Shown here piece by piece: positions 5,650 to 29,077 of a stretch of 64,000 nt of DNA. The position numbers were made by a program, and so were the translations under genes. The DNA lies in IMG/VR virus record IMGVR_UViG_3300026478_000449. The stretch is one strand, 5' to 3'. A model generated the notes under the pieces. It saw nothing but the letters and a program-made list of their open reading frames with translations, was not told the origin of the DNA and did not search any database. Each line of letters starts with the position of its first letter. Within the stretch, counting starts at the first letter, position 1. The stretch is from a virus.

Positions 5650-5660
5650 TAAATATAACT

Positions 5661-9149: not shown

Positions 9150-9214
9150 TTTTAATTGCCCCTTGTCAACGAAAGTTGGCACTGGGGCGTTATTATAATA
9201 TCAAGGAGGGTTTT

Positions 9215-9529: not shown

Positions 9530-9928
9530 ATGAAAAGGTTAGCAGTGATTCTTACTGCGATGATTACAATTGGGATAAGCCAAGTAAGTATGGCTCAGAA
9601 AAACCTCTTTGGGAATCATACCATTACAGAATCGTCAGCGAAGACTGCGACCAAAAAAGGACCAGTCCTTGTAAAATCCCTAAGATTACCCAAGAATAAA
9701 ATTTTTACAGGTAATCCTCATAAAATTACTTTATTTGCAGACGATAAAGAATATGATATTATAGAAGTTGACGATATTATTACATCTTATCGTCGACGCG
9801 ATCTTCAAAGAATTCAAACAGACCCAACACCAGATGATCCGGACGGGTTAATTACTGAAGAAATACGGTGGAAACTATTTTTAGCAAGAACAGCGGCTAT
9901 GATTCGTTATCACCAAATCCACTCATAG
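9530..9928 (+). CDS. secreted hypothetical protein
   Basis: Signal peptide MKRLAVILTAMITIGISQVSMA; terminator follows. Confidence 0.45.
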   Translation: MKRLAVILTAMITIGISQVSMAQKNLFGNHTITESSAKTATKKGPVLVKSLRLPKNKIFTGNPHKITLFADDKEYDIIEVDDIITSYRRRDLQRIQTDPTPDDPDGLITEEIRWKLFLARTAAMIRYHQIHS

Positions 9929-11323: not shown

Positions 11324-12400
11324 ATGGCAAAAGCATTTGATATTTCTAAATTTAGAAAGTCAATTACTAAGTCTATTGACGGTCTTAGTATTGGCTTTAA
11401 CGACCCTACTGATTGGGTCAGCACAGGCAATTTTGCCTTAAACTATTTGATCAGCGGCGATTTCCATAAAGGGGTTCCGTTGGGAAAAGTGACTGTATTT
11501 GCCGGTGAATCAGGTGCAGGTAAATCATATATCTGTTCCGGTAACCTTATCAAGGCAGCACAGGCACAGGGAATTTATCCTATCTTGATCGATACAGAAA
11601 ATGCTCTTGACGAAGATTGGCTCAAGGCATTAGGCGTCGATACTTCAGAAGATAAGTTGCTAAAACTTAATATGGCAATGATCGATGATGTAGCAAAGAC
11701 CATTACAGAATTTGTTGCTGAATATAAAACAATGCCAGAGGATACTCGTCCTAAAGTATTGTTTATCCTTGACTCTTTAGGTATGTTGCTTACTCCAACA
11801 GATGTTAATCAGTTTGAAGCAGGTGATTTGAAAGGCGATATGGGTCGTAAGCCTAAGGCATTGACAGCACTTGTTCGTAACTGTGTTAATATGTTTGGAT
11901 CACTTAACATTGGCCTGGTTGCAACTAATCACACATACGCTTCACAAGATATGTTTGATCCAGATGACAAGATTTCAGGTGGTCAGGGCTTTATCTACGC
12001 TAGCTCTATTGTAGTTGCTATGCGTAAGTTAAAGTTAAAAGAAGATGAAGATGGTAACAAGATTTCAGAAGTTAAGGGTATTCGTGCCGCTTGTAAGATT
12101 ATGAAAACTCGTTATGCTAAACCATTTGAAAGTGTACAAGTGAAGATTCCTTATGAAACAGGTATGAATCCATATAGTGGACTGGTAGATCTGGCAGAAG
12201 AAAAAGGTCTTCTAAAGAAAGAAGGTAACAGTCTTGTTTACACAACTAAAGATGGTGAAATCATCAAACAGTTCCGCAAAGCCTGGGAAAGAAATGAAAA
12301 TGGTGGCTTAGATGCTATTATGTCTGACATTTCAAAACATGGTGAAAATTCCGTTTCTGAGATAACTACTAATGTCGAACCTGAAACGGAGAGCGTATAA
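11324..12400 (+). CDS. uvsX: UvsX recombinase (RecA-like)
   Basis: Walker A GESGAGKS, ILDSLG, ATNHTY (T4 AINHTY), DPYSGLVDLA (T4 DPYSGLLDMA). Confidence 0.85.
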   Translation: MAKAFDISKFRKSITKSIDGLSIGFNDPTDWVSTGNFALNYLISGDFHKGVPLGKVTVFAGESGAGKSYICSGNLIKAAQAQGIYPILIDTENALDEDWLKALGVDTSEDKLLKLNMAMIDDVAKTITEFVAEYKTMPEDTRPKVLFILDSLGMLLTPTDVNQFEAGDLKGDMGRKPKALTALVRNCVNMFGSLNIGLVATNHTYASQDMFDPDDKISGGQGFIYASSIVVAMRKLKLKEDEDGNKISEVKGIRAACKIMKTRYAKPFESVQVKIPYETGMNPYSGLVDLAEEKGLLKKEGNSLVYTTKDGEIIKQFRKAWERNENGGLDAIMSDISKHGENSVSEITTNVEPETESV

Positions 12401-12645: not shown

Positions 12646-13101
12646 ATGAATTGGTATGATCGAGTTTCAAAGGATATTTCAAATATTCCAGATGCTGTGG
12701 CTTATTATGAAGCCCAATTAACTGAGGCAAAACAAGATGCCCGTATAGCGGGGAACATCGAGAAAGCGTCTGCGCAGATGCCCGGCATTGTTGAAAATCG
12801 ATTTAATCAACTTCAAGAAATTGAAGCAATTTTAGAATACCTAAACATTGAACTTCGTCGGCTTCGTAGTCAACATTTTCGTAAGTATCTTGAAAACTAT
12901 CAACGTAGCCTCTCCTCTAGAGATTGTGAAAAATTTGTAGAGGGCGAGGCCGACGTTGTAGACTTTGAAAAAATTATCAATGACTTTGCCCTACTTAGAA
13001 ATAAGTGGTTGGGTATTATCAAAGCATTAGATCAAAAACAATGGCATCTAAGCAACATTGTTAAACTACGTGTAGCTGGTTTAGAAGACGCTACTCTTTA
13101 A
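12646..13101 (+). CDS. hypothetical protein (UvsY-like mediator candidate by size/position)
   Basis: 151 aa helical protein directly after uvsX; no clear alignment to T4 UvsY. Confidence 0.25.
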   Translation: MNWYDRVSKDISNIPDAVAYYEAQLTEAKQDARIAGNIEKASAQMPGIVENRFNQLQEIEAILEYLNIELRRLRSQHFRKYLENYQRSLSSRDCEKFVEGEADVVDFEKIINDFALLRNKWLGIIKALDQKQWHLSNIVKLRVAGLEDATL

Positions 13102-13892
13102 AACCTCATACCAGGAAATACAGTTTTCTTAACCTGGTTATTATCGTGATCCATAGTTTTAAATAAATCAAATGGTAGATCTAATTGTTTGCATAGGTCT
13201 GCCATTGCTTTTGTGTCTTTAGGCAAACACATTCCTCCATACCCTCGCATTTCTGGTCCGCAGCTAAGATAATCAGGACTTGATGTTTTTCTTAATAAAA
13301 AAGTTTCTAATACTTTGTCGTAGTCTGAATTTAGTTTATCACAGACTTCGTACATAACGTTTGCAAATACTACTCGCAAAGCATTAAAAGTGTTTGAATA
13401 ATACTTTAATATCTCTGCTTCAGTGGGCGTCATTCTAACTGTATTCTTAGGAAGCCAAGAATGTGCTTCACAGACCTTGTGCCAGGACCTGTCTGTATAA
13501 CATCCTACTGCTAGTACATCGTGATTTCTTACAAAATCTTCTAGGGCAGATCGTTCTCTTAAAAATTCAGGAACAAAGCAAATATCTTTATCATTATATT
13601 TTTCAATTATAGATTGTGTGGTTCCTGGCACCGATGTTGATTTAAGAGCGATCACACCCTGATATTTTAAATTTTTTAAATTAGATATTGTTTGATGCAC
13701 AATTGACAAATCGCATTCGCCATTTTCACCCGACGGTGTTGGCACACAAACAAATACAATTTCAGTATCCAATACACTATCGATAGTTGTATTAAATTTA
13801 GGATCGTGTTTAGTTACATCGTGTCCTAACATCTTAAATCCTTCACCAACAGCACTACCTACTGCTCCCCAACCAATAATTCCTATTTTCAT
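13098..13892 (-). CDS. nucleotide-sugar dehydrogenase family protein (UDP-glucose/GDP-mannose dehydrogenase-like, short form)
   Basis: N-terminal Rossmann MKIGIIGWGAVGSAVG; catalytic-Cys motif GYGGMCLPKD matches the UGDH GGSCFxKD motif. Confidence 0.55.
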   Translation of the reverse strand: MKIGIIGWGAVGSAVGEGFKMLGHDVTKHDPKFNTTIDSVLDTEIVFVCVPTPSGENGECDLSIVHQTISNLKNLKYQGVIALKSTSVPGTTQSIIEKYNDKDICFVPEFLRERSALEDFVRNHDVLAVGCYTDRSWHKVCEAHSWLPKNTVRMTPTEAEILKYYSNTFNALRVVFANVMYEVCDKLNSDYDKVLETFLLRKTSSPDYLSCGPEMRGYGGMCLPKDTKAMADLCKQLDLPFDLFKTMDHDNNQVKKTVFPGMRF

Positions 13893-14746
13893 ATTAAGCT
13901 CTCAACAGTTTTCTTTAATCCGTCTTTCAATGATGTATATTCTGTAAATCCGGTTAATTTTTTCATCAGGGTAGTATCGGGGCAACGTCTTTTTGCACTA
14001 CCTTTTGGACCTGGAAGTATTTCTAATTTCTCCGGATCTACTCCCATTATGTCTAAAATAATTCTTGCTACTTCAGCAATTTCATTTTCTTCTTGTCTGC
14101 CTACGTTAACTATATAATTTTTATTATTTGTCACTAGTCTATGAGTTATTTCAACAGCATCGTCGATATAACAAAAACTTCTTGTATCATTGCCTTTGAT
14201 ATAATACTCACCTTTGGCAACACGTTCAACAAATTCGCTGATGAAATGATCTACCTGACCAGGACCGTAGATATTAAAGTATCTAATAATTAACCAATCT
14301 AATCCAGAATTAGCAACTAAGTTTTCTCCTAGTGCTTTTGGTAAACTATAGCTCCAGCGAGGATTGATCACATCTTCAAACATCACAGGAACTGATTCAT
14401 CAGTGGGAACTGGATATAGTCCTTTATCAATAGCACCATTAAAAATTTCACAAGTGCTTGTAAAAACAAATTTAGTATCTGTACCTTTATATCTATTAAT
14501 TAAATTAAATGTTGGTAAAGTATTATTAAATGCAACTTCAGTTGGTTTTTCGTAGAACAGTTTGGTTCCATTGGTCGCGGCCATATGAACAACGACATCA
14601 CAATTTGGAGAAGAATTTGTTATGTCTGGTAAACAAAGGTCTTGGCCTTCTCTTTTATCAAATACTACGGTTTCGTGTTTATCTTTAATTAAATTATAAT
14701 AATGGCTACCAATAAATCCTCTATGGCCTGTAAGTAATATTTTCAT
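13889..14746 (-). CDS. NAD-dependent sugar epimerase/dehydratase (extended SDR)
   Basis: MKILLTGHRGFIGS (GxxGxxG) and YSLPK (YxxxK). Confidence 0.6.
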   Translation of the reverse strand: MKILLTGHRGFIGSHYYNLIKDKHETVVFDKREGQDLCLPDITNSSPNCDVVVHMAATNGTKLFYEKPTEVAFNNTLPTFNLINRYKGTDTKFVFTSTCEIFNGAIDKGLYPVPTDESVPVMFEDVINPRWSYSLPKALGENLVANSGLDWLIIRYFNIYGPGQVDHFISEFVERVAKGEYYIKGNDTRSFCYIDDAVEITHRLVTNNKNYIVNVGRQEENEIAEVARIILDIMGVDPEKLEILPGPKGSAKRRCPDTTLMKKLTGFTEYTSLKDGLKKTVESLI

Positions 14747-14794
14747 AGAAATATTTATCGACTAAATATGAGCAGTTAATAGAATTGGACTACA

Positions 14795-15535
14795 ATGCGA
14801 TCTTTTAGAGTAGTGACTACACAACATAAACCTTACTATGACCTTATCGGTAAGGAATGTATTCAATCCTTTTTGAAATATTGGCCTAAAGAGGTTTCAA
14901 TCGAATTATGGGCAGAAAATTTTGAACCCGACATAACAGACCCTAGATTAATAATTAAAGATTTTAATAAAATAAATCCTAGATTTGAAAACTTTAAACA
15001 ATTAATGTTTTCGTCAACAACAAATGACAAAGTATTATCTAAGAAAACATTTTGGCTAAAAGGACACGTAGTTTTAACAGCTCTTGAAACTTTTGATTCC
15101 GATGTGTTTATATGGTTAGACAGTGATGTAATAACTCATAATTATGTTACCATTGAATATTTGAATTCTTTAATTCCAGAAGACACATTAGCTGTTGATG
15201 TTCCTGCAGGAGGAAAAGGTCGTGATAAAGAAGCAGAAACAGGATTTTTTGGATTAAATCTAAAAATGAAAGAATCAAAATCTGTTATCGATTACTATAG
15301 AGAATATCATACAACACTAAAAATGTTAGATACACCTAGATATATGGAAACATCCGTATGGTGGTCGGCTATAAAAAATTCAGGTGCAAAAGCTAATCAT
15401 TTAAAAACATCTAAGGATCATTTGATGCCGTTTATGTATACTGAATTAGCTCAATATATGCGTCATTGGGTAGCACAAAAAAATAAGGCTAATTATTCTA
15501 AAGGCAGCAGAGAAAAAACTCAGGAAGAACAATGA
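14795..15535 (+). CDS. DxD nucleotide-sugar transferase-like protein (paralog family A, copy 1)
   Basis: Shares N-terminal ...Y.LIGK.C...FLK.WP... and D.FIWLDSDV motif with 18369, 19978 and 20703(-). Confidence 0.45.
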   Translation: MRSFRVVTTQHKPYYDLIGKECIQSFLKYWPKEVSIELWAENFEPDITDPRLIIKDFNKINPRFENFKQLMFSSTTNDKVLSKKTFWLKGHVVLTALETFDSDVFIWLDSDVITHNYVTIEYLNSLIPEDTLAVDVPAGGKGRDKEAETGFFGLNLKMKESKSVIDYYREYHTTLKMLDTPRYMETSVWWSAIKNSGAKANHLKTSKDHLMPFMYTELAQYMRHWVAQKNKANYSKGSREKTQEEQ

Positions 15536-16110
15536 AATCAACAGCCCAAGCATATCAAGATTTATTCGTATATTCTTTATTCGGTAATAATGGAACATAC
15601 ATTGAAGTTGGTGCTCATAAACCAATAAAAAACAGTAACACTTATAATTTAGAAGTAACGTGCGGCTGGAAAGGATTTGGCATAGAATTCAATGATTCTT
15701 TAAAAGAGTTTTGGGAAAAATCTCCTGAAAGAAAAAATAAAATTTATTGGGAAGATGCATTGACATTTAATTACATCAATGCATTAACAGAAAATCTTTT
15801 ACCAACACACATAAATTATTTGTCTTGTGATATAGAACCTCCAGAAAATACATTTAATGCTCTTAAGAATATTGTTGGTCAAGGAATTACTTTTGATATA
15901 ATTACATTTGAACACGATTTATATAATTCAACAGTTGACTATAATTTAATTGCTACTGAGTTTTTATTAAACAACGGGTATAAAGTAGCAGTTACCGATG
16001 TATATTATAAAAAAGAAGAAAATTTATTCGAAACATGGTTTTTAAAAGACAACATAGAATTTAAAACTTGTTCGTTTAATGAATGGAAAGAAAGAACAAA
16101 TTTGTTATGA
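15532..16110 (+). CDS. FkbM-type methyltransferase-like protein
   Basis: GTYIEVGAHKP resembles the FkbM G.F.DVGAN.G block; weak. Confidence 0.3.
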   Translation: MKSTAQAYQDLFVYSLFGNNGTYIEVGAHKPIKNSNTYNLEVTCGWKGFGIEFNDSLKEFWEKSPERKNKIYWEDALTFNYINALTENLLPTHINYLSCDIEPPENTFNALKNIVGQGITFDIITFEHDLYNSTVDYNLIATEFLLNNGYKVAVTDVYYKKEENLFETWFLKDNIEFKTCSFNEWKERTNLL

Positions 16111-16868
16111 AAAAAATTGTTTTAATTACCGGAGGCTTTGATCCTCTACATTCTGGTCATATTGCTTATTTTAAAGCAGCAAAGGCATTGGGTGATATTT
16201 TAGTTGTAGGCGTAAATTCTGACGCTTGGCTAACACGCAAAAAAGGTGCTCCTTTTATGCCTTATATGGAACGTGCATCAATTGTACGGAATATAGTTGG
16301 TGTAGATTTTGTTATAGACTTTAATGACAGTGACGGTAGTGCTAAACACGCCATACAAATGGTGCGTCAAAGTTATCCTCAAGAACGTATTATTTTTGCC
16401 AACGGTGGAGATAGAACCAAAGAAAATATTCCCGAAATGGACATCAAAGACGACAACCTAGAATTTGTGTTTGGTGTTGGCGGAGAAGATAAAAAGAATT
16501 CTAGTTCTTGGATTTTACAGGAATGGAAAGCACCTAAGACTGAACGTCAATGGGGTTACTATCGTGTTCTGCACGAAGTTCCTGGAATGAAAGTTAAGGA
16601 ACTAACAGTTAATCCAGGTTGCAAATTATCAATGCAAAGACATAAGTATCGTTCAGAATATTGGATAGTGAGTGAAGGTAGAGCCGATGTTAACAAAATG
16701 ATGGACAGCGGTTACTCGTTGCCGACTGCTAGATTAGAATTGCACGACGAAGAAGATATTCCAGTCGGACAATGGCACCAATTAACAAACCCTTACGATG
16801 TGCCTTGTAGAATTGTAGAAATTCAATACGGTGAGCGTTGCGAAGAAGAGGACATAGAAAGAAAATGA
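16107..16868 (+). CDS. sugar-phosphate nucleotidyltransferase (HIGH-motif cytidylyltransferase fold) fused to MPI-type cupin
   Basis: ITGGFDPLHSGH (TagD/RfaE-II-like GxFDxxHxGH); C-terminal WGYYRVLH...PGCKLSMQRHKYRSEYWIV...GQWHQLTN cupin; track start 16083 also possible. Confidence 0.5.
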   Translation: MKKIVLITGGFDPLHSGHIAYFKAAKALGDILVVGVNSDAWLTRKKGAPFMPYMERASIVRNIVGVDFVIDFNDSDGSAKHAIQMVRQSYPQERIIFANGGDRTKENIPEMDIKDDNLEFVFGVGGEDKKNSSSWILQEWKAPKTERQWGYYRVLHEVPGMKVKELTVNPGCKLSMQRHKYRSEYWIVSEGRADVNKMMDSGYSLPTARLELHDEEDIPVGQWHQLTNPYDVPCRIVEIQYGERCEEEDIERK

Positions 16869-17545
16869 TTAGAATATTCATTGGGTACGATCCTCGTGAA
16901 GCCGTGGCGTTTCACGTGTGTTCGAACAGTATTATTAGACAGGCTAGTTGCCCTGTTAGTATTACTCCCCTGGCGTTGAATACATTCAATGAGTACAAAG
17001 AAACACACAGCGATGGTAGTAATCAATTTATCTACTCTAGATTCTTAACACCTGCCCTATCGGACTTTATGGGCTGGGCTATATTTGTCGACGGCGATAT
17101 GATTTTAAGAGATGATATTTTAAAATTATGGAATCTAAGAGACGAGTCAAAGGCAGTAATGGTAGTCAAACACGACTATAAAACTAAGATGACAGAAAAA
17201 TATCTAGGCAGTAAGAACGAAGACTATCCTAGAAAAAATTGGTCTAGTGTTATCTTATGGAATTGCAGCCATCCTAAAAATAGAATCTTAACACCTAACT
17301 TCATTGAAAAATCTACAGGTGCACAGCTACATAGATTTACTTGGTTAGAAGACAATGACATTGGCGAATTGCCTAAAGAATGGAACTGGCTGGATGTCGA
17401 ATATGATTATAACCCAGATGCAAAATTAGTTCATTATACGTTAGGTACACCTTGCTTCCACGAATTTGCACATCAAGGAAGTTTTTCAGGCGAATGGCAT
17501 CTTGAAAGAATTTATGCAGATTGGTGTCAACAAAGGAATCTATGA
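16865..17545 (+). CDS. GT8-like glycosyltransferase
   Basis: AIFVDGDMIL DxD block and WSSVILWN resemble the GT8 (glycogenin/LPS glycosyltransferase) signature; ATGA overlap start. Confidence 0.45.
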   Translation: MIRIFIGYDPREAVAFHVCSNSIIRQASCPVSITPLALNTFNEYKETHSDGSNQFIYSRFLTPALSDFMGWAIFVDGDMILRDDILKLWNLRDESKAVMVVKHDYKTKMTEKYLGSKNEDYPRKNWSSVILWNCSHPKNRILTPNFIEKSTGAQLHRFTWLEDNDIGELPKEWNWLDVEYDYNPDAKLVHYTLGTPCFHEFAHQGSFSGEWHLERIYADWCQQRNL

Positions 17546-18372
17546 ACAATTGGTTATTTTTAAGCAAAGACGGCCAGGACGAATATATTAATATGTTTGC
17601 TATCGGCACCGGAGGAAGAGTGGTGTCGACTGAAGATTTTATCTTTGAAGATTCCGAAGATCCTATTGTGATGAGAGGAATATTAAAAAAGAAAATAATT
17701 CAACAATGCTGGCGTGAACAACGAGATTTTTATTTTATTGACACTGGATATTTAGGAAATCAAAAAAGTCCTGTAAATCCAATGGGTTGGAAATACTATC
17801 ATAGAATTGTAAAAAACGATTTGCAATACGAAGGAGATATAATTCCTAGACCTAATGATAGATTTAAACAGTTAGCTATTCCGATTAGCGATTGGAAAAA
17901 AGGCGGAAGAAAAGTTTTAATTGCTGCACCCGATGAAAAACCTATGAGGTTCTACGGATTAGATCGAGAACAATGGTTGGAAGAAACTATAGAAACAATT
18001 AAGAAATATACCGATAGACCGATTGTTGTTAGGGATAGAGTTAAGAGTAGATTAGATCGTGTAATTCATAATACACTAAAAGAAGCACTCGATGACGATG
18101 TTCATTGCCTAGTTACTTTTAATAGTAATTCTGCAACTGAGTCAGTCCTACACGGAATACCAGCATTTATACTTGCTCCAAGCCATGCGGCTAGTCCAGT
18201 AACATTAAGAGACTTAAGCAAGATTGAAAATCCGTATTATGCAGACAAGGATAAAGTTTATGCTTGGGCTTGTCATCTAGCATATCTGCAATATCATAAC
18301 AACGAACTTAGAGATGGTTCTGCAAAAAAGATGTTAGAAGAAACATATGAGTTAATAAAGGAACATAGATGA
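17542..18372 (+). CDS. GT-B-like transferase (paralog family B, copy 1)
   Basis: Paralogous to 19049 and 21948; C-terminal NSNSATESVLHGIPAFIL resembles the GT-B sugar-donor-binding half. Confidence 0.4.
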   Translation: MNNWLFLSKDGQDEYINMFAIGTGGRVVSTEDFIFEDSEDPIVMRGILKKKIIQQCWREQRDFYFIDTGYLGNQKSPVNPMGWKYYHRIVKNDLQYEGDIIPRPNDRFKQLAIPISDWKKGGRKVLIAAPDEKPMRFYGLDREQWLEETIETIKKYTDRPIVVRDRVKSRLDRVIHNTLKEALDDDVHCLVTFNSNSATESVLHGIPAFILAPSHAASPVTLRDLSKIENPYYADKDKVYAWACHLAYLQYHNNELRDGSAKKMLEETYELIKEHR

Positions 18373-19052
18373 ACTTAAATTTTATTACCAGTCTTTCTAA
18401 AGAATATTGGGAAGGAACAGGAAAATTTTGTCTAAAGACTTGGAAAAATTTTCCAGGCACAGTGACAGTTTATATCGATCAACAAGAAGGTGACATAGCC
18501 TGGATCAATGAACTACCATCATCCTTTGTTAAAAAATTAGTTCGTGTTCCTAATCTAAATTTAGAAGATAGAGATTCTACAAAAATTAGAAAATTCTGGG
18601 GTAAAGCCTGCGCCCAGATATCTGCAATGAGAGAACGAGGTAAAGATGAAAGAATAGTTTGGATAGATGCTGACGTTGAACAAACAGCATCCACTTTACC
18701 AGAATCTATTTTTTCTTTTAGTTTTATGGAACCAATTGCAATGTTAAACTCCGGTGACGGCGAAGACTGTTGGGAATCCGGCATAGTTGTTTTTAATCAA
18801 ACTGCCGATAAGATCGATTTGGTTGTTAGAAAATATGAAAATATGTATCTAAATCAAGATAACTTGTTTAGTCTATGGAAACCTTACGATGCACAGGCAT
18901 TAGGTGCTGTGGCAATGGAAAGAGGATTTTTAAATTTATGCAAGAAAAAATGTCCTAATGCAGAAGCATTAGCTAATAGTCACTTTGCTCCATATTTTAA
19001 ACATTGGATTAATAAAGATAATAAAAAATTATTAATTGAAAAGAATAAATGA
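18369..19052 (+). CDS. DxD nucleotide-sugar transferase-like protein (family A, copy 2)
   Basis: RIVWIDADV; conserved N-terminus as copy 1. Confidence 0.45.
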   Translation: MNLNFITSLSKEYWEGTGKFCLKTWKNFPGTVTVYIDQQEGDIAWINELPSSFVKKLVRVPNLNLEDRDSTKIRKFWGKACAQISAMRERGKDERIVWIDADVEQTASTLPESIFSFSFMEPIAMLNSGDGEDCWESGIVVFNQTADKIDLVVRKYENMYLNQDNLFSLWKPYDAQALGAVAMERGFLNLCKKKCPNAEALANSHFAPYFKHWINKDNKKLLIEKNK

Positions 19053-19981
19053 CAACAGTAGCGGTATACCACGGTTCTGTACCAAACAAAAAGAGCCAAG
19101 AAAAAATTGATCTTTTAAGATACTTCTCTGAAGGTGCTAGAAGAACAGGATCAATAGTCTACGACTATCTTGATCACTCTTATCGACCATCGGATGTGGC
19201 CATTATACAAGGTTGGGTCGCTCCCGGTCGGCCAACTGGTAAGCATTTACTCTTAAGAAATACTGTTATTCAACAACAACTTAAAAATAAAAGACACGTA
19301 ATAGGTGTTGACAGCAATTTATTTCTTTATAAAAATAAAGAAAATCCTTTGCATTATCTCAGATACAGTTTTGATGGAATATTTCCTAATACAGGAATTT
19401 ATTGTGATACGGAAATTGATCCATTTCGATGGAAAAAAATTAGTCATAATTTAAAAATTCAACCTAAAGAGTGGAGAACTAACGGAGACCATATTTTGTT
19501 GTTGCTACAAAGAAACGGCGGATGGAGTATGGGAAATCTTGATGTACAAGACTGGGCTAACGATGTTATAGCTCAGGTAAGACAATATTCCGATCGACAC
19601 ATAATTATACGACCACATCCTGGAGATAAAGATGCTATAAATTATCTTAATCCTAGACTAGGTAGATGTAAAATTAAATTTTCTAAAAGAATCACTCTTA
19701 GCTATAATAAAAATTTAGAAGATGATTTAGTAGATTGTTGGGCAGCAATTAATTATAATTCAAGTCCTGCTGTAGGAGCAGCGATTGAAGGTGTTCCTAT
19801 TTTTGTAATGGATCCTGCCCGTAGTCAGTGCGCAGAAATTGCTAATACTGATTTATCTCAAATTGAAAATCCACAAATGCCCTATAGAGACAGATGGCTT
19901 GAACGATTAGCCATGTTTCATTGGAATTTTGACGAACTAAGATCCGGCGAATGCTGGAGCCATATGAAAAAATTTATATGA
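19049..19981 (+). CDS. GT-B-like transferase (family B, copy 2)
   Basis: HIIIRPHPGD and NYNSSPAVGAAIEGVPIFV; the RPHP motif is reminiscent of KpsC/KpsS-type capsule Kdo transferases (tentative). Confidence 0.4.
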   Translation: MTTVAVYHGSVPNKKSQEKIDLLRYFSEGARRTGSIVYDYLDHSYRPSDVAIIQGWVAPGRPTGKHLLLRNTVIQQQLKNKRHVIGVDSNLFLYKNKENPLHYLRYSFDGIFPNTGIYCDTEIDPFRWKKISHNLKIQPKEWRTNGDHILLLLQRNGGWSMGNLDVQDWANDVIAQVRQYSDRHIIIRPHPGDKDAINYLNPRLGRCKIKFSKRITLSYNKNLEDDLVDCWAAINYNSSPAVGAAIEGVPIFVMDPARSQCAEIANTDLSQIENPQMPYRDRWLERLAMFHWNFDELRSGECWSHMKKFI

Positions 19982-20727
19982 AAAAGATTTCTGTTATTAC
20001 AAGTTTTAACGAAAAATATTATGAGTTAATTGGCAAATATTGTGTTGCTACATTTTTAAAAAATTGGCCAACTGACATTAATTTAACCTGTTACGTGGAA
20101 GAAATGTCATTAACTCCCGATCCACGTATTATACAAATTCCTTTTACAGAACTTCCTGTTGAATATTTTGATTTGCAAAAAACAAAATTTAAACAAAGAG
20201 TAAAAACTTTTTCTAAAAAAGGTTATTCTGTAATTCACGCTATGGAAAACATAGATTGCGATCTATTAATATGGATTGATTCTGATGTATTAACACATAC
20301 AGCGGTTCCTAGAGAATTTTTAGAAAATTTATGTTCGTCTAAAGATCTAACTACGTTTATGGGTGTATGGCACGAAGCAAATGACAAAGAATATTTCAGT
20401 TGTGAATCAAGTTTTTTTGTTGTAAACAAAACTCATCAAAATTTTTCATTATTTTCAAAGAGATATCGTGAATATTATGATAATCGATTAACTGAGAATT
20501 TAAGAAGATTCTATGACGGTGAAGTCCTTGGAGCAACTATTAAAGATTTAGAAAAATTAGGAGGTATGAATGAAATTAATCCTAACTTTCACAAAACTCC
20601 GATGCCAAGAACCATACTAAAAGATTATTTTACTCATTTTAAGGCAGGACTAAAAGAAGATGATGACCTTGATACGAGTATTGAAGAATTAATTGGCAAT
20701 ATTCAAACTGTTCCAGTTTGCCAATAA
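19978..20727 (+). CDS. DxD nucleotide-sugar transferase-like protein (family A, copy 3)
   Basis: DLLIWIDSDV; ATGA start overlap; track start 19951. Confidence 0.45.
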   Translation: MKKISVITSFNEKYYELIGKYCVATFLKNWPTDINLTCYVEEMSLTPDPRIIQIPFTELPVEYFDLQKTKFKQRVKTFSKKGYSVIHAMENIDCDLLIWIDSDVLTHTAVPREFLENLCSSKDLTTFMGVWHEANDKEYFSCESSFFVVNKTHQNFSLFSKRYREYYDNRLTENLRRFYDGEVLGATIKDLEKLGGMNEINPNFHKTPMPRTILKDYFTHFKAGLKEDDDLDTSIEELIGNIQTVPVCQ

Positions 20728-21533
20728 CTTTCTTTTCTTCTAACCTTTAGATCTTGAGGCTTACTACGGCCTAGATCTTTTCTACCGCCTTTCAAATGGT
20801 CAAGATATGCTCCCCATTCACTGTTAATCAGCGGATGACCTTCTCCAGTGATAAGATGGCTGCTCCAATCTAATTCATTTAAGGTTGAATTTCGTCGTAC
20901 GACATCAAATACAAAACTATCATGCCATTCTTCTAAGGTAAAAATTCCTAATTCTGCACAATCGTACATCCATTGAAATTTTTCTAAGAATTTTTGAACA
21001 GCAGGTGAACGCAAATTCATTGCGTAAAGGCCACATTCACTAAATTTTCCTTTTCTTCCAAGAAAACACAAATCTTTGTCTGCCGGAATTAGACGTTGAA
21101 TTGTTTCCATGGTAATTGGACTATGACAAATGGTATCTGCGTCCATCCAAACTAAAATATCTGCGTCAGTTTCCTTAGCACAGTGAAAAATTGCATAGAC
21201 TTTGTGGGCAAATCTAACAGCATCCCATTTAAAACCTTTGCCAGCATCTTTTCTTCGACTTCGAATAGGATCTGCTGATACATCGCCGTTAGCCTTGGGA
21301 ACATTTTTCCACTTTTCTTTAAATTTCATAAGCTCTTCAACTTCTTCAAGGCGTTTTAATGTCACGTGATTGTGATTTCGTATTGCAGGATTACAAAGTT
21401 CTGGATAAATGTGAAGGGTGACCTCTTCTGGCCACTTTTCACAAAAACTATCTATCATTTTTTGGCCGTATTTTGCACGACCCGCATCATTAAAAGTTGT
21501 TACCACTGCATATTTCATTTTCTTTTTTCCCAA
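20703..21533 (-). CDS. DxD nucleotide-sugar transferase-like protein (family A, copy 4)
   Basis: DILVWMDADT; N-terminal MKYAVVTTFNDAGRAKYGQKMIDSFCEKWP matches the family. Confidence 0.45.
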   Translation of the reverse strand: MGKKKMKYAVVTTFNDAGRAKYGQKMIDSFCEKWPEEVTLHIYPELCNPAIRNHNHVTLKRLEEVEELMKFKEKWKNVPKANGDVSADPIRSRRKDAGKGFKWDAVRFAHKVYAIFHCAKETDADILVWMDADTICHSPITMETIQRLIPADKDLCFLGRKGKFSECGLYAMNLRSPAVQKFLEKFQWMYDCAELGIFTLEEWHDSFVFDVVRRNSTLNELDWSSHLITGEGHPLINSEWGAYLDHLKGGRKDLGRSKPQDLKVRRKESYWQTGTV

Positions 21534-21913
21534 ACGTGAAATTTTTTATCAACCGAGGTGCATACCCAGCCTGTATTGTATAGAGCCTTCATTGTTTTTT
21601 TGTCTACTATAGAATTTCCTTCGACTATTACAACAGATTTAAATCTTGTCCAAAAATTATTCAATTTTTCCAGCCTATCTATTTTATCTAGGTTAAAGTA
21701 TATGGCCTTTATTTCATATAATGTTTCAATATAGTCAAAATTTTCTCTATAAATTAATTTTTTTGATTTTAAAGATCTATCTTCTGCTTCTATTATAAAA
21801 GTTGTGTTATGTAAAGACACTATGTCCTGCAACATTCCAAAACCGTCACCAATTACCAAAGCATTTTCTGCTCTGCCAATAATTTTTTTGATCTTTTTTT
21901 CAAACGAGGCCAT
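21515..21913 (-). CDS. hypothetical protein (132 aa)
   Basis: Translationally coupled upstream of 20703..21533. Confidence 0.35.
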   Translation of the reverse strand: MASFEKKIKKIIGRAENALVIGDGFGMLQDIVSLHNTTFIIEAEDRSLKSKKLIYRENFDYIETLYEIKAIYFNLDKIDRLEKLNNFWTRFKSVVIVEGNSIVDKKTMKALYNTGWVCTSVDKKFHVWEKRK

Positions 21914-21947
21914 AAATTAATTAAATACTCTGATATTTATTACTCCT

Positions 21948-22772
21948 ATGCGCTTCAAACTTTATCGTGAATACGGTGCCTTAAACAGCGCACCAATTTT
22001 TAATGCAGTCGAACAAGGACTGCGTTCACTTGGCCACGAAATTGTTAATAAAGACGAAGACATACCGGTAATTTGGTCAGTTTTATGGTCAGGCAGGATG
22101 AAAAACAATCAAGCCATATATCATAATGCTATAAAAAATAAAAAATCTGTTTTAATTATAGAAGTTGGAAATTTAAAAAGGAACGAGACCTGGAGAATTT
22201 CTTTAAACCATATAAACGGATTAGGCGTTTTTAATAATCTTACAAATTTAGACTCCTCGAGACCAGGAAAATTAGGTATAGAATTAAAATCTCCTCCTAA
22301 CAAAACAAGAGGAGAGATACTAGTGGCTTGCCAACATCAAGAAAGTCTTCAATGGGAAGGTATGCCAACTATGGCAGAATGGTGTAAGGATACGATTTCT
22401 AAAATTAGACGGCACTCACAGCGCAGGATTATAGTTAGACCACATCCAAGGTCTCCATTTCCGTTTAGTGTGCCTAATGTAATATTAGAGAGGCCTAGAC
22501 ATATTCCAAACACCTATGATAATTTTGATATTTTTTACAACTATCATTGCGTGATTAATTATAATGCAGGACCGTCTGTTCAAGCTCCTATAAATGGGAT
22601 TCCCGTGCTCTGTGATTCTTCTAGCCTAGCTGGCGAATTAAGCATTAAATGGGAAAATCTTGAAAATCCCACATTGCCAGATAGAGAAGAATGGTTTCTC
22701 AAACTCTGCCATACCGAATGGACTGTTGACGAAATAAGTCAAGGTATTCCTTTGGCAAGATTGTTCGGTTGA
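21948..22772 (+). CDS. GT-B-like transferase (family B, copy 3)
   Basis: RIIVRPHPRSP and NYNAGPSVQAPINGIPVL. Confidence 0.4.
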   Translation: MRFKLYREYGALNSAPIFNAVEQGLRSLGHEIVNKDEDIPVIWSVLWSGRMKNNQAIYHNAIKNKKSVLIIEVGNLKRNETWRISLNHINGLGVFNNLTNLDSSRPGKLGIELKSPPNKTRGEILVACQHQESLQWEGMPTMAEWCKDTISKIRRHSQRRIIVRPHPRSPFPFSVPNVILERPRHIPNTYDNFDIFYNYHCVINYNAGPSVQAPINGIPVLCDSSSLAGELSIKWENLENPTLPDREEWFLKLCHTEWTVDEISQGIPLARLFG

Positions 22773-22803
22773 CTTTCATATCTGCCTGTTATATAATAAT
22801 TAA

Positions 22804-23991
22804 ATGTTAAGCTCTGTGTATGCCGAAGACATTTTTCTTCGTTTTTATACTCTTGTTCAATCTGGTCAACTACACGTTCAGCACCAGGACTTCTCGCCTA
22901 TTCTTAGTTTTCACGAGAAAATTTCCAATGACAGCGAACTAACAAAAAATCAAGCTAACTACATTTTAAAAATATTAGAAAAATACAAAAATGTATCGGC
23001 ATTATTGGGTTTTGATTACAAAGACGCATTGTTAACAGCGCAATGGCAAAGACCTTTTAGAGTACTAGATCTTACAAAAAAAATCTATGTAGAAAACAAA
23101 GATGGATCTTTAGAAATTTGTCTAAAATTTCCATATCAATTGAAAAAAGAGTTTGACGATGAAATAAATGTTAACTTGCCTAATTCAACTAGAGTCAGTC
23201 ATTGGGATCAAGAAGACAAAGTTCGACGTTTAAAATTTTACGAATACAACTTGATCAGTCTATATGAATTTGCTAATAAACACAACTTTGTAATTGACGA
23301 CAGTTTTATGAGTGTGTTGTCAGATGTTGAAGAAATATGGCAAAATTCAGACAACATTATTCCCTGTTCGGAAATAATTAATTCAAAAGTTGAATTAGTA
23401 AATGCTGATCCAGAAACCGAAGAATGGTGGTCAAATACTCGCACCGAATCATTAAACAATGATTTATTACTGGCTAAGAGTATGGGATTTCCATTGAAAA
23501 AAAATCCGGTAAGTTTAGTAGAAAAAATAGCATCTTCGTCTGAAAATTTATTCTGGATTAAAAATGTTCAAGATTTCTTTAACATTAGCACTACCGTTAA
23601 AGGCAGAGTCTGTATAATTTTAGATAGAACATCTGACACACTAAAATGGTTACAAGAATTTGTAAAAGCAGCTGATCAAAATAGTGTTCCTAGAGAAGAA
23701 ATTAAGGTATGTTTTAGAGATACTAAAGATTCAAAGACCGGTCTTAATGACTGGATTAAACTAGCAGGTGTTGGCGGCAAAGTGGATACTGGAAAATTTT
23801 TAATATTTGAATCTAAGCCAGCTAAATGGTTGTTTAAAGATAACCTTGATGTTAAAATGTTAGTAACAAATAACATTTATCCGCCAACAAGTGTTATTAC
23901 AAAAGATTGGTTTGATTCTCATCCTTGTGTAATTTATCTAGGTGCAGCAAAACCAAGCACTCATAAAGGAAGAAAGATTGTCGAATTGTAA
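22804..23991 (+). CDS. hypothetical protein (395 aa)
   Basis: Long ORF between the glycan island and uvsW. Confidence 0.4.
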   Translation: MLSSVYAEDIFLRFYTLVQSGQLHVQHQDFSPILSFHEKISNDSELTKNQANYILKILEKYKNVSALLGFDYKDALLTAQWQRPFRVLDLTKKIYVENKDGSLEICLKFPYQLKKEFDDEINVNLPNSTRVSHWDQEDKVRRLKFYEYNLISLYEFANKHNFVIDDSFMSVLSDVEEIWQNSDNIIPCSEIINSKVELVNADPETEEWWSNTRTESLNNDLLLAKSMGFPLKKNPVSLVEKIASSSENLFWIKNVQDFFNISTTVKGRVCIILDRTSDTLKWLQEFVKAADQNSVPREEIKVCFRDTKDSKTGLNDWIKLAGVGGKVDTGKFLIFESKPAKWLFKDNLDVKMLVTNNIYPPTSVITKDWFDSHPCVIYLGAAKPSTHKGRKIVEL

Positions 23992-25432
23992 ACTTACAAT
24001 TAGAGATGAAGTTAACATTAAAGTCGATGGACTTAGTGTTGAAACACGAAGAAAAATTGTCAACAAATTAAAATTTGACCTTCCCTATGCAAGGCATATG
24101 CCAGCCTACAAACTAGGTCGCTGGGACGGAACTAAAACATATTTTAGCATTGGTGGCAACGGTTATCTTGCACACTTAGATGTTATTCTTCCTATAATAG
24201 ATGAAGCAGGATACGACATTGAAGTTGAAGATTTAAGATCTTCTCATGATTTTAAATTCGATCCAGTAACTGAAAACTATTGGGCAGACAAAGGAAAAAC
24301 TTGGCCTAAAGGTCATCCTGCCGAAGGACAGCCAATTGTTTTACGTGATTATCAATATGACGTTGTTAATAAATTTTTAGAAAATCCACAAGCTCTACAG
24401 GAGGTAGCAACAGGTGCCGGCAAGACAATTACTACTGCGACGTTATCGCATCTTTGTGAACCGTATGGCCGTACGATGGTTATTGTTCCGAACAAATCGC
24501 TTGTTGTCCAAACTGAAGAAGACTACAAAAATTTAGGATTAGATGTAGGAGTTTATTTTGGTGATAGAAAAGAACTTAACAGAACGCACACTATCTGTAC
24601 TTGGCAAAGTCTTAACGTCTTGGATAAAAAGAGTTATGACGAAGAGAGTCTTTCGTTAGCAGAGTTTTGTGAAGGAGTAGTAGCAATCATTGTTGACGAA
24701 GTCCATCAGGCTAAGGCAGATGTATTAACAAAACTTCTTACACAAAACTTTAGAAATTGTGCCATTCGTTGGGGATTAACTGGAACTGTCCCTAAGGAAA
24801 ATTGGGAATTTCAAGGTATCCTTGCTAGCATTGGTCCAGTTATTAATAACGTATCTGCACACGATCTACAACAAAAAGGAGTGTTGGCAAATCTTAATAT
24901 TAATATTGTTCAAACTAACGATGTTGAGGTGTTTAGAAGTTATCAAGAAGAGTATACTTGGTTAGTAACTGATCCAAAAAGATTAACTTGGATAGCAAAT
25001 AAAATTAAAGAATTAAGTCAATCAGGCAACACCCTAGTCCTCATCAATCGCATTGATACTGGAAATAAACTAATGGAGCAATTGCCAGATGCGGTGTTTA
25101 TCAACGGTAGCGTTAAGTTAGATGATCGAAAGGAAGAATACGATGAAGTACGGACTAGCAATGAAAAGATTATTGTGGCGACTTATGGTGTGGCCGCTGT
25201 GGGTATTAATATCCCTAGGATTTTTAATTTGGTTCTTTTGGAACCCGGAAAGAGCTTTGTTAGGGTTATACAATCTATTGGGCGAGGTATTAGAAAAGCA
25301 GAAGACAAAGACCACGTTGAAATCTGGGATATAACTAGTACCTGCAAATATGCAAAACGACATTTAACAGAACGTAAAAAATACTATAAGGAGGCGAAAT
25401 ACCCCTTTACAATTATTAAGGTGAATACATGA
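23942..25432 (+). CDS. uvsW: UvsW-like SF2 DNA helicase
   Basis: RDYQ, Walker A ATGAGKT, DEVHQA (T4 UvsW DECHLA), TWQS, IGRGIR; ATG start overlaps upstream gene by 50 nt. Confidence 0.75.
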   Translation: MQQNQALIKEERLSNCKLTIRDEVNIKVDGLSVETRRKIVNKLKFDLPYARHMPAYKLGRWDGTKTYFSIGGNGYLAHLDVILPIIDEAGYDIEVEDLRSSHDFKFDPVTENYWADKGKTWPKGHPAEGQPIVLRDYQYDVVNKFLENPQALQEVATGAGKTITTATLSHLCEPYGRTMVIVPNKSLVVQTEEDYKNLGLDVGVYFGDRKELNRTHTICTWQSLNVLDKKSYDEESLSLAEFCEGVVAIIVDEVHQAKADVLTKLLTQNFRNCAIRWGLTGTVPKENWEFQGILASIGPVINNVSAHDLQQKGVLANLNINIVQTNDVEVFRSYQEEYTWLVTDPKRLTWIANKIKELSQSGNTLVLINRIDTGNKLMEQLPDAVFINGSVKLDDRKEEYDEVRTSNEKIIVATYGVAAVGINIPRIFNLVLLEPGKSFVRVIQSIGRGIRKAEDKDHVEIWDITSTCKYAKRHLTERKKYYKEAKYPFTIIKVNT

Positions 25433-29049: not shown

Positions 29050-29077
29050 TCGATAAATATGCTAAAGGTCCGTAAAA

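Follow-up and report, generated by a model that had tools for sequence, protein, structure and literature searches.

A variable island of sugar-transferring enzymes between uvsX and a uvsW-like helicase gene in freshwater jumbo phages

What might a phage build with a 9.7-kb island in which 8 of 13 products are sugar-transferring enzymes, and to what acceptor would the product be attached? The question was raised by a 64,000-nucleotide stretch of virus record IMGVR_UViG_3300026478_000449 (the window), in which thirteen ORFs fill positions 13098-22772, as an earlier note had described from the sequence alone. These genes were also called on many independent metagenome contigs. The island was said to lie between uvsX and uvsW, and this location held, but without direct abutment. 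On the left, the UvsX/RecA-like recombinase gene (11324..12400, plus strand; PF00154; 70-85% identity in relatives) is followed by two small genes encoding 81 and 151 aa. On the right, a conserved 395-aa protein gene (g14, 22804..23991, plus strand) stands beside the UvsW-like SF2 helicase gene (23942..25432, plus strand; ResIII, DEAD, and Helicase_C domains). The g14 product had no matches in family and domain searches and has a 33% identical ortholog in the related phage L007; the annotation of the PA5oct-like phage Ettore shows no 395-aa counterpart in the UvsX-helicase interval, and membership of g14 in the island is uncertain. A sigma-70-type early promoter sequence (GTTGACT-N17-TATAAT, 22768..22797, plus strand) lies ahead of g14 and the helicase gene, which it is predicted to drive, and sits exactly at the island's right border. 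The window holds 18 strong matches to such promoters, compared with 0.17 expected by chance; this one, just outside the island, is the only match on the plus strand, and none of the 18 falls within the island. Four of the 13 island genes (g01, g02, g11, and g12) are on the minus strand, contrary to the claim that the island is co-directional with gp32, uvsX, and uvsW, and these genes together with the lack of internal early promoters undercut the argument for early or middle expression. The divergently oriented genes g02 and g03 are separated by 48 bp (14747..14794) that carry GATAAATAT on the minus strand, a motif present in three divergent intergenic regions of the window.

Comparison with Ettore, which is free of the island and has the same order of TerL...SSB-UvsX-small ORFs-helicase...DnaB, bears out the claim of insertion and supports the view that the island entered a backbone collinear with PA5oct-like phages. 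The same site in the related phages L005, L007, L012, and L013 holds orthologs of the core genes plus different accessory genes, among them DegT, a CAP59-type glycosyltransferase (GT), two GT25 genes, and methyltransferases. Six genes (g05, g06, g07, g08, g09, and g11) make up the conserved core. The site, from uvsX/uvsY-like to uvsW, is fixed across freshwater jumbo phages of a widespread clade that is a distant relative of the PA5oct-like phages, and different versions of the island occupy it in related phages.

The candidate sugar-activating enzymes were classified by profile and structure-database searches. The g01 product (13098..13892, minus strand; 264 aa, with a 262-aa counterpart in L007) is a mini version of the UDP-glucose/GDP-mannose dehydrogenase family that matches PF03721 and PF00984 only (2e-19 for the N-terminal and 5e-20 for the central domain; 2e-24 to UGDH in the PDB). 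Both the NAD-binding domain and the central catalytic domain are in place, with PEFLRE, KxxxN, and the catalytic Cys of GGMCLPKD preserved; the entire C-terminal UDP-binding domain is missing, with the TIGR03026 match spanning profile positions 65-301 of 413 and the UGDH alignment stopping near residue 309 of 444. The earlier assignment to this family from GYGGMCLPKD was thus right as to family and motif, but the protein is short and lacks the UDP-binding domain. An extended short-chain dehydrogenase/reductase of the NDP-sugar epimerase/dehydratase type, also as proposed, is encoded by g02 (13889..14746, minus strand; PF01370 Epimerase, 1.2e-31), with GxxGxxG and YxxxK visible in the sequence; its top NCBIfam matches (dTDP-glucose 4,6-dehydratase, LegB 4,6-dehydratase, and heptose 6-epimerase) were all under their trusted cut-offs. 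The proposed fusion of a HIGH-motif nucleotidyltransferase to a type II phosphomannose-isomerase cupin was confirmed for g05 (16083..16868, plus strand; PF01467 CTP_transf_like, 1e-12; PF01050 MannoseP_isomer, 2e-22; TIGR02199, 1.4e-21; TIGR01479, 2.2e-19; phrog_7878, 2e-28). The ATG at 16107 probably marks its actual start, it is kept in all related islands, its PDB matches are ECT, HldC, and TagD, and its nucleotidyltransferase domain is closest to heptose-1-P adenylyltransferase and glycerol-3-P cytidylyltransferase. The FkbM-like methyltransferase proposed for g04 (15532..16110, plus strand; 192 aa) was not confirmed: no significant Pfam, NCBIfam, PHROG, or PDB match was obtained even with a 35-sequence profile, Methyltransf_21 matched 2 of the 35 family members non-significantly (E 0.048), and none of the 357 members of the family has a Pfam domain. 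The 132-aa g12 product (21515..21913, minus strand) has a Rossmann-like N-terminus and no match in domain, NCBIfam, or PHROG searches; it was found only in close strains and is absent from L005 and L007.

The transferases comprise one GT8-like enzyme and two paralog families, each without a Pfam model, for which sugar-transferase folds were found, as the earlier note had supposed. The GT8-like transferase g06 (16865..17545, plus strand; DGD motif) matched PF01501 at 2.5e-6 (27.7 bits against a cut-off of 24.3) and phrog_28018 at 4.9e-39, with orthologs of 43-70% identity in relatives. The four DxD paralogs are related to one another at blastp values of 5e-4 to 2e-28 and 20-30% identity: g03 (14795..15535, plus strand; D109-x-D111 and H224 invariant), g08 (18369..19052, plus strand; orthologs of 50-57% identity in L005, L007, and L011), g10 (19978..20727, plus strand; 2e-28 to g03; orthologs of 36-46% in L005, L011, and L012), and g11 (20703..21518, minus strand; orthologs of 44-63% in all relatives; a weak Glycos_transf_2 match, 1e-3). 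In a high-confidence structure model the family adopts the GT-A fold of retaining transferases, and its invariant DxD...H set would bind metal. Fold comparison also brought up TcdA, lymphostatin, glycogenin, and UGGT. These protein-modifying toxins and self-glucosylating enzymes, together with the solubility of all island products, suit another cytoplasmic target, such as a host protein or a free or small-molecule glycoconjugate. Host functions would then be taken over or poisoned, or CMP-Kdo or ADP-heptose sequestered; sequestration of LPS precursors was discussed as an idea by Pyle et al. We regard this as the least probable reading, for a conserved multi-step core with swappable accessories looks like a structured, diversifying glycan rather than a single inactivating modification.

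The second family consists of g09 (19049..19981, plus strand), which has a KpsC/WbbB/KrkA fold with R188-P-H190-P191 and N-S238-S, and its paralogs g07 (17542..18372, plus strand; 1e-17 to g09; orthologs of 38-59% identity in relatives) and g13 (21948..22772, plus strand; 8e-19 to g09; orthologs of 35-44% in L005, L011, L012, and L013). The three are related at 2e-10 to 8e-19, and g09 and g13 carry RPHP, in line with the two motif-bearing members of the earlier note; g07 lacks the HP motif and aligns with a gap at RPHP. R188, H190, P191, and S238 are near-invariant in the family, and Capsule_synth (KpsC/KpsS) matched 4 of 60 members weakly (best 3e-5). Using the RxHP/NSS/QxxxD definitions for beta-Kdo transferases (PMC12887879), the resemblance to Kdo transferases that the earlier note had pointed out was upheld in part: the closest fold is that of KpsC, WbbB, and KrkA, which are retaining β-Kdo transferases, and the CMP-binding RxHP and NSS are kept, whereas the QxxxD nucleophile is mostly missing (g09 has Q154 but no Asp at Q+4). 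The family is therefore a relative and not a member of these transferases, and its donor and mechanism are uncertain. Both expansions are real but ancient rather than recent, because each paralog has its own ortholog (39-70% identity) in related phages.

The folds, motifs, paralogy, insertion, and differences among phages were demonstrated in this analysis; the sugars, the order of steps, and the acceptor are inferences. The g01, g02, and g05 products would make or alter activated sugars, with the g05 isomerase part acting as a mannose-type ketose/aldose isomerase, and the five retaining-type GT-A enzymes (g06 and the four DxD paralogs) and three KpsC-like transferases may then add sugars singly in the cytoplasm. 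Donors could supply hexoses and an ulosonic acid activated with CMP (host CMP-Kdo, for example), possibly together with a sugar of the heptose or mannose type and one of the uronic or pentose type. The outcome would be a branched, acidic oligosaccharide on an acceptor other than an undecaprenyl-linked exported polymer. We conclude that assembly of a complex acidic glycan is the most likely role of the island, with the virus particle as its probable carrier and the phage DNA probably left bare of it.

That the chain forms a phage-made glycan coat on one or more structural proteins of the virion is a tentative assignment, to which we give somewhat less than an even chance. It is favoured by gene neighborhoods elsewhere: Caulobacter phage CcrColossus has a homolog in a GT cluster directly after its tail genes and before its lysis genes, and a podovirus of 42.7 kb has members of both families beside a gene annotated as TibC, a protein heptosyltransferase, and next to its genes for TerL, portal, and capsid. 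The giant algal virus TetV-1, with four paralogs of the same fold, is a further point in its favor. There is also a precedent for phages that glycosylate their virions with GTs of their own (Freeman et al. 2023, cited in PMC12619734). The island itself lies in the replication/recombination module and not among structural genes, and a related cluster in Pelagibacter phage Mosig is likewise among replication genes.

The main rival to the virion as acceptor is the host envelope, where, during infection, soluble enzymes on the cytoplasmic side of the inner membrane would modify lipid A-core, the phosphatidylglycerol-Kdo capsule linker, or another glycolipid, changing the cell surface so as, for example, to block superinfection or keep progeny from adsorbing to infected cells and debris. 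The LPS- and capsule-building folds (KpsC, WbbB, KrkA, LgtC, and WbbM), the nearness of the g05 nucleotidyltransferase domain to heptose-1-P adenylyltransferase, and the LOS-type GT25 transferases added in relatives all fit this alternative, as does the 52% identity of the g05 N-domain to cyanophage genes, e.g. of S-SSM7; cyanophage LPS-like gene clusters are usually read as envelope remodeling. No transmembrane segments were present in the 13 proteins, as noted before (maximum 19-residue Kyte-Doolittle mean, 1.19), and family and domain searches found no Wzx/Wzy-type, export, or ligase genes in the island. Bacterial LPS-core GT8/GT9 enzymes and KpsC/KpsS are themselves peripheral enzymes without transmembrane segments, so the soluble proteins are compatible with a lipid acceptor, which weakens the earlier argument from missing transmembrane segments. 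We nevertheless consider the envelope rather unlikely. For a lytic phage eight transferases would be costly, the product must still be exported (with export and ligase genes absent) and must dilute the existing surface, the same families adjoin capsid genes in the podovirus, and TetV-1 carries its four paralogs although its algal host lacks LPS.

Location near uvsX within the replication/recombination module also invites the reading that the oligosaccharide is built on a hydroxylated or hydroxymethylated phage base, as in T4, RB69/DLP3, and the metavirome BGCs of Pyle et al. In that work, phage GT-A (GT8/A64R-like) and LPS-type GTs were shown to extend 5hmC glycans, with decoration by Kdo, HexA (uronic acid), and heptose, the last through a cytidylyltransferase-dependent pathway; fold alone therefore cannot separate protein from DNA acceptors. 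Multi-sugar glycans on DNA are known from poly-arabinosylated 5hoC, and the window encodes four 2OG-Fe(II) oxygenases and one SAM methyltransferase. Palindrome counts nevertheless argue against global hypermodification of C or T. CATG occurs 15 times in positions 1-36,000 (the sum of three segments, island included) compared with 96.6 expected, an approximately six-fold avoidance, and 5 times within the island compared with 27.2; AAGCTT is absent (8.5 expected). L007 instead avoids TGCA twelve-fold (6 observed, 72.9 expected), Mosig has no GATC (50.6 expected) or ACGT (22.5 expected), and other phages with the GT family of the island avoid GATC, ACGT, or GTAC. Such avoidance is the footprint of type II restriction on unprotected DNA and, being lineage-specific, implies that the DNA can be cut by restriction enzymes, which disfavors the proposed analogy with T4 DNA glucosylation. 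Within the 64-kb window of this >200-kb genome, searches along the lines proposed in the earlier note turned up no base-hydroxymethylating gene, and none for a ThyA-like hydroxymethylase, TET/JBP, C5-methyltransferase, dCTPase, or dNMP kinase; the known DNA-glycosylation systems compared each include one of these five types. Eight GTs also exceed the needs of any known DNA glycan, and we judge DNA an improbable acceptor.

In the preferred model, the six-gene core would build the conserved part of the glycan and the swappable accessory genes would diversify its outer part in the manner of an O-antigen locus.

The island at 13098-22772 consists of 13 ORFs (g01-g13) lying end to end, many of them overlapping by 4 nt, and the same 13 genes were called on independent metagenome contigs from several samples. 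Its GC content (0.30-0.375) is somewhat below that of the left flank and similar to that of the right flank. The flanking gp32 and uvsX genes share ∼68% DNA identity over parts of their length with those of PA5oct-like, Rak2-like, and Atu_ph07 jumbo phages; no near-identical DNA was found among GenBank phages. Gene order in the PA5oct-like phage Ettore matches that of the window (TerL, large protein, virion protein, SSB, UvsX, small ORFs, helicase, primase, and DnaB), with the helicase directly following the small ORFs and no island between them. The island, perhaps together with the next gene (g14, 22804-23991), was therefore inserted into a conserved backbone, as the earlier note had proposed. 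Related metagenomic phages on contigs of 265-270 kb, with uvsX 70-85% identical, carry an island at the same place. Conserved among these islands is a core of g05, g06, g07, g08, g09, and g11, often with g13 and g10, and the accessories are variable (a DegT aminotransferase, a CAP59-type transferase, two GT25 enzymes, other SDRs, and methyltransferases). Judged from gene content, this is the pattern expected of a glycan whose inner part is conserved and whose outer decorations vary. After uvsX, all relatives also encode a 151-aa protein (12646-13101, + strand; 55-83% identical) that has no Pfam match and whose sequence pattern resembles that of the recombination mediator UvsY. A closer-alignment scan of the genome collection returned only four loci, all on contigs binned into Bacteroidota or Saccharibacteria MAGs; because each carries gp32, uvsX, and uvsW, we read them as phage contigs and rejected them as bacterial homologs.

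Nine island genes lie on the + strand and four (g01, g02, g11, and g12) on the − strand, so that the co-directionality with gp32, uvsX, and uvsW claimed earlier does not hold: the island is three to four transcription units, not a single co-directional one. The early or middle expression deduced from co-directionality is undercut by these four opposing genes and by the lack of a strong sigma-70-type promoter inside the island. The sequence GTTGAC-N16-19-TAYAAT occurs 18 times in the window (0.17 expected by chance), with 17 copies on the − strand at 40.5-54.6 kb (40492-54554), before small ORFs with GGAG ribosome-binding sites, and the remaining copy on the + strand at 22768-22797, exactly between g13 and g14. 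None of the 18 is inside the island, which therefore has no host-type early promoter of its own. The − strand of 40492-54554 looks like a host-RNAP-dependent early region. This stretch has a higher GC content (0.44-0.51); within it, on the − strand, are adjacent genes for a MoxR-like AAA+ ATPase (AAA_5/AAA_3; 45707-46912) and a DUF2201 metallopeptidase/VWA-like protein (47019-48104), and at its edge, also on the − strand, are adjacent tRNA-Met(CAT) and tRNA-Arg(TCT) genes (53556-53714). The promoters suggest a host with canonical sigma-70 and Shine-Dalgarno (SD) usage rather than a member of the Bacteroidota, and such a host would fit the PA5oct kinship better than do the Bacteroidota MAG bins of related contigs; as evidence for the host, the bins are weak and conflict with the promoters. 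A generic promoter and terminator scan over the island gave 68 matches with 63 expected, which is not above chance. The motif GATAAATAT showed no enrichment across the window (4 copies versus 3.2 expected), although three of the copies are in divergent intergenic regions; it stands at inconsistent distances from start codons, and we make no claim for it as a promoter. The motif (G/A)ATAAATAT, which resembles the T4 late promoter TATAAATA, has four copies in the window, at 14751-14759 (−), 21933-21941 (−), 29052-29060 (+), and 5648-5656 (+). Each of the three short divergent intergenic regions that were checked contains one copy, and the remaining copy immediately precedes the likely start of the portal-like gene; here too the distances to start codons are inconsistent.

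Several island genes encode enzymes of sugar-nucleotide metabolism. The earlier identification of g01 as a UDP-glucose dehydrogenase (UGDH)-family enzyme with a catalytic Cys stands as regards family and motif, but the protein has only the NAD-binding and central domains of the UDP-glucose/GDP-mannose dehydrogenase family and ends after the latter, without the ∼120-residue C-terminal UDP-binding domain. It scores 158 bits against a TIGR03026 cut-off of 189.8, its catalytic residues are kept (GGMCLPKD, PEFLRE, and KYYSN align with UGDH 3vtf), and the short form recurs as a 262-aa counterpart, 30% identical, in a related contig (L007). We considered the 132-aa product of g12 as the missing UDP-binding domain and found no support for this, the similarity being a local one of 29 residues (E 0.04). 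The extended-SDR, fusion, and GT8-like assignments made earlier for g02, g05, and g06 all agree with Pfam. The g02 protein falls below the cut-offs of the dTDP-glucose dehydratase, LegB, heptose epimerase, and UDP-xylose synthase-type models. The g05 product, in which the GGFDPLHSGH motif is present, exceeds the thresholds of both PF01467 (48.7 bits; cut-off 21) and PF01050 (79.8 bits; cut-off 23.6) and is, on these domain matches, recognizable as a true fusion protein that joins a HIGH-motif nucleotidyltransferase to a type II phosphomannose-isomerase (PMI) cupin. The best match of its nucleotidyltransferase part is heptose-1-phosphate adenylyltransferase RfaE domain II (1.4e-21), with further matches to phrog_7878 and, in the PDB, to ECT, HldC, and TagD; every equivalog model scores under its cut-off. 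The g06 product reaches 27.7 bits against the Pfam GT8 cut-off of 24.3 in a partial match (profile positions 67-143), and a DGD motif is present in its sequence. The FkbM-like methyltransferase proposed for g04 fared less well, as the resemblance is at the level of motifs (YIEVGA and DIEPPE): neither the single sequence nor a 35-member profile gave a significant match in any library tried, including Methyltransf_21 and solved class I methyltransferases, and the two of the 35 members that came closest to Methyltransf_21 reached only E 0.048, below significance. In a strain contig (6829-6929, corresponding to 16040-16140 of the window), a 2-nt deletion (GGAAAG to GGAG) puts g04 and g05 into one reading frame, with a predicted product of 444 aa; this would be either an assembly error or a natural fusion tying g04 functionally to the nucleotidyltransferase-isomerase. 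The 395-aa g14 product had no match in Pfam, NCBIfam, PHROGs, PDB, or phage genomes, and no support was found for a TibC/GT9-like role, which we had considered.

The remaining transferases belong to two families, a DxD family (g03, g08, g10, and g11) and a KpsC-like family (g07, g09, and g13). All-against-all blastp and alignments bear out the paralogy within both, described earlier as two paralog expansions; the expansions, though, are old, since each paralog has its own ortholog in related phages (35-70% identical, versus 20-30% between paralogs within the window). Sequence-profile searches of the PDB gave no significant match for either family. The 204 database relatives of the DxD family are all metagenomic, none being named or having a Pfam domain. 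Its AlphaFold model (pLDDT 95.9) is a GT-A Rossmann-like fold with a DxD motif and a C-terminal His, the features that define the retaining GT-A clan, in support of the sugar-transferase fold suggested before. Across 78 members, K89, W107, D109, D111, N155, and H224 are invariant; D109, D111, and H224 are read as a putative Mn-binding set as in GT8 enzymes. The family thus resembles GT8 (LgtC, glycogenin, GlyE, and WaaJ/WaaO) and PBCV-1 A64R in its DxD and C-terminal His, which recall their Mn-binding triad. Unlike them, it reaches no Pfam model, gives weak GT2 or GT8 matches in a minority of members (GT2 in 15 of 78), and carries a conserved N-terminal block of its own; metagenomic phage contigs are its only known source.

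The KpsC-like family is far larger (4,590 relatives in a word-indexed search; 4,226 clusters at 50% identity in an exhaustive search), again with no Pfam model. The structure model of g09 (pLDDT 96.1) has the modified GT-B-like, two-Rossmann fold common to KpsC (GT107), WbbB (GT99), and KrkA (GT140). Two motifs are shared by these enzymes according to the KrkA paper (PMC12887879): (K/R)xHP, which binds CMP, and QxxxD, in which an absolutely conserved Asp acts as covalent nucleophile. In KpsC, WbbB, and KrkA, D-to-C variants trap an adduct. Sequence similarity to them is negligible: an enlarged family profile brought up WbbB in the PDB at E 0.45, with R-x-H-P and N-S-S aligned to its RAHP…NSS, and 4 of 60 diverse members gave weak Capsule_synth (KpsC/KpsS) matches. 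The (K/R)xHP motif, the Ser-Ser phosphate-binding motif, and the Gln of QxxxD are nevertheless well kept (R188 in 81, H190 in 76, P191 in 74, S238 in 78, and Q154 in 74 of 82 sequences). The nucleophilic Asp, in contrast, is found at Q+4 in only 9 members, the position being Ser (36) or Gly (32) in 68 of the 82, g09 included; the local sequences are QRNGG in g09, QHQES in g13, and PDEKP in g07, which also lacks the HP of (K/R)xHP. The lead to KpsC/KpsS Kdo transferases is therefore upheld for fold and nucleotide site and not for the nucleophile, and because QxxxD is a defining feature we do not file the family as GT99, GT107, or GT140. Most plausibly, its members would use a CMP-activated ulosonic acid by a different mechanism. 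The phage proteins differ further in being single-module (∼280-310 aa), phage-encoded, and present as three ancient paralogs. BFVD matches to the g09 model include four paralogs of this fold in the giant algal virus Tetraselmis virus 1 (TetV-1), two annotated as capsule polysaccharide biosynthesis proteins, a parallel to the three in this phage.

Phage transferases of these folds also act on DNA, so that the fold cannot decide the acceptor, and independent evidence was sought. In the work of Pyle et al., phage GT8/A64R-like and LPS-type transferases extend glycans on 5hmC, and Kdo, uronic acid, and heptose are found on DNA; poly-arabinosyl-5hoC likewise exists in phage DNA. The island resembles such systems (T4 alpha/beta-GT, RB69/DLP3 arabinosyl-5hoC, and the MT/5mYOX/GT BGCs of Pyle et al.) in its soluble transferases related to LPS enzymes, accompanied in some of them by sugar activation of their own, and in its position near replication genes. 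The published DNA-glycosylation systems consulted, however, include a ThyA-like enzyme or a C5-MT/TET pair, usually alongside a dCTPase or dNMP kinase, and the transferases of the island far outnumber those required for any DNA glycan known. No ThyA-like hydroxymethylase, hydroxylase, C5-MT and TET-like pair, dCTPase, or dNMP kinase was detected among the ORFs of the 64-kb window of this >200-kb genome, so that the search for dCMP hydroxymethylase or other base-modification genes advised in the earlier note came back empty for that stretch. The four 2OG-Fe(II) oxygenase genes present (37877-38500, 56870-57481, 57400-58059, and 61205-61828), one adjoined by a class I SAM methyltransferase gene (60558-61208), are of the Oxy_5/Oxy_3 type, a Pfam class that is not TET/JBP. 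Just upstream of the DnaB-like helicase, a 314-aa protein (31311-32255, + strand; next ORF 32248-32880) has only the N-terminal domain of the NodU/CmcH-type carbamoyltransferases (6e-26) and might carbamoylate a sugar or a base; in a cyanophage, a PMI gene adjoins a carbamoyltransferase gene.

Strong avoidance of restriction sites further distinguishes this phage from the DNA-glycosylating ones, whose DNA should be broadly resistant to type II enzymes and hence show little of it; the evidence is indirect. CATG occurs 69 times in the whole window (189 expected; z −8.7), 15 times in three segments summed over 1-36 kb (96.6 expected; O/E 0.16), and 5 times in the island (27.2 expected), and AAGCTT is absent from the window (8.5 expected). 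The relative L007 shows no avoidance of CATG and has 6 copies of TGCA (72.9 expected; O/E 0.08). Pelagibacter phage Mosig lacks GATC (50.6 expected) and ACGT (22.5 expected), and podovirus MW202713 has 9 copies of GTAC (43 expected). Where type II restriction selects on cuttable DNA, short palindromes in which all four bases occur come to be avoided, each lineage avoiding its own. Avoidance that differs by lineage in this way argues against global hypermodification of C or T, motif-restricted modification aside. The T4-like DNA hypermodification named first among the likely targets in the earlier note is thus opposed both by site avoidance and by the lack of a base-hydroxylating partner in the 64-kb window, and DNA ranks third among the acceptors that we considered, as an improbable one; other cytoplasmic targets rank fourth and are slightly less probable still, part of the probability being assigned to none of the four. 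The CATG O/E ratio is uneven, rising from ∼0.16 in 1-36 kb to 0.42 in the 36-56 kb segment and 0.86 in the last one (56-64 kb). This suggests recent acquisition of the right end of the window from a lineage free of CATG restriction; a JGI strain contig, too, departs from the window sequence at around 58-61 kb.

The absence of transmembrane segments and of Wzx/Wzy-type genes reported earlier was borne out: the highest 19-residue Kyte-Doolittle mean among the 13 products is 1.19, and Pfam searches of the region together with the transmembrane scan of these products found no flippase, polymerase, chain-length regulator, ABC exporter, or initiating phosphoglycosyl transferase such as a Wzx/Wzy- or ABC-dependent export locus would have. 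A glycolipid of the host envelope ranks second as acceptor and is unlikely. On balance we favor, tentatively, the proteins of the virion, a reading supported by the gene neighborhoods of homologs in two other phages. In CcrColossus, a homolog is found together with sialyltransferase-like, NDP-sugar transferase, and GT9 genes between the tail genes, which come directly before, and the lysis genes. In podovirus MW202713, members of both families adjoin the TerL, portal, and capsid genes and are accompanied by a methyltransferase, a DegT-type enzyme, and a transferase annotated as TibC. In Mosig, however, the related cluster is among replication genes. A candidate acceptor of the glycan is the Ser/Thr-rich 471-aa protein with Ig-like repeat signatures encoded at 7430-8845 (+ strand), whose positional counterpart in Ettore carries a virion-structural-protein annotation. 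Three small ORFs located between the structural genes and gp32 (8976-9149, 9176-9511, and 9530-9928) have signal-peptide-like N-termini, and the phage may secrete their products or direct them to the periplasm; among these is a 57-aa peptide rich in Ala, Pro, and Lys, whose L007 counterpart has a weak 'ArabinogalactanP' match.

The island is a well-defined case, with a fixed site, a six-gene core, variable accessories, and two large Pfam-less transferase families with very confident models. New are an insertion site that is fixed yet hypervariable and has a defined core, the two large Pfam-less families putatively assigned by structure, a family of KpsC fold in which the canonical nucleophile is lacking, a truncated UGDH, a nucleotidyltransferase-PMI fusion, and evidence from sequence composition that counts against DNA as the target. 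The KpsC-fold family is, on its structure model, a candidate new glycosyltransferase family for CMP-activated sugars, and restriction-site avoidance offers a cheap test that separates DNA-modifying glycosyl clusters from other kinds in metagenomes. A more speculative and rather unlikely proposal is that this widespread clade of freshwater jumbo phages builds an LPS-core-like, ulosonic-acid-containing virion glycan by means of two unclassified transferase families, one of them KpsC-fold without the QxxxD nucleophile and hence of another mechanism, and that the uvsX-uvsW island, through its conserved core and swappable accessories, is a 'serotype locus' that selection diversifies much as it does bacterial O-antigen loci. 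If the product does coat the virion, abundant freshwater jumbo phages would join mycobacteriophages and giant viruses as carriers of complex virion glycosylation, which would matter for adsorption, for the stability of the particle, and for recognition.

Cyanophages, pelagiphages, Caulobacter phages, and 'moraphages' carry glyco-gene clusters, and such clusters are common in large aquatic phages; we found no report in the literature of a tested function for phage sugar gene clusters. The island resembles the LPS-like or polysaccharide clusters of S-SSM7, P-TIM68, and Mosig, the N-terminal domain of g05 being 52% identical to stand-alone genes of T4-like cyanophages and Mosig having a cluster of KpsC-like, glycosyltransferase, methyltransferase, and sulfotransferase genes; it also resembles that of the freshwater moraphages, large phages for which four core glycosyltransferase orthogroups have been described. 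It differs from all of these in the fusion protein, the two Pfam-less paralog families, and the fixed hypervariable site, and may differ from the moraphages also in host, in that their predicted hosts are Bacteroidota, whereas the promoters here point to a sigma-70/SD-using host. With mycobacteriophage virion glycosylation (Freeman et al. 2023, as cited in PMC12619734) and the glycosylation of giant-virus capsids and fibrils, the island has in common soluble viral glycosyltransferases and sugar-nucleotide enzymes of the cytoplasm. In other phages, homologs of the island families adjoin structural genes, and TetV-1 has them in multiple copies. The mycobacteriophage systems use few glycosyltransferases; the island differs from them in having eight transferases, drawn from different families, and in its site within the replication module.
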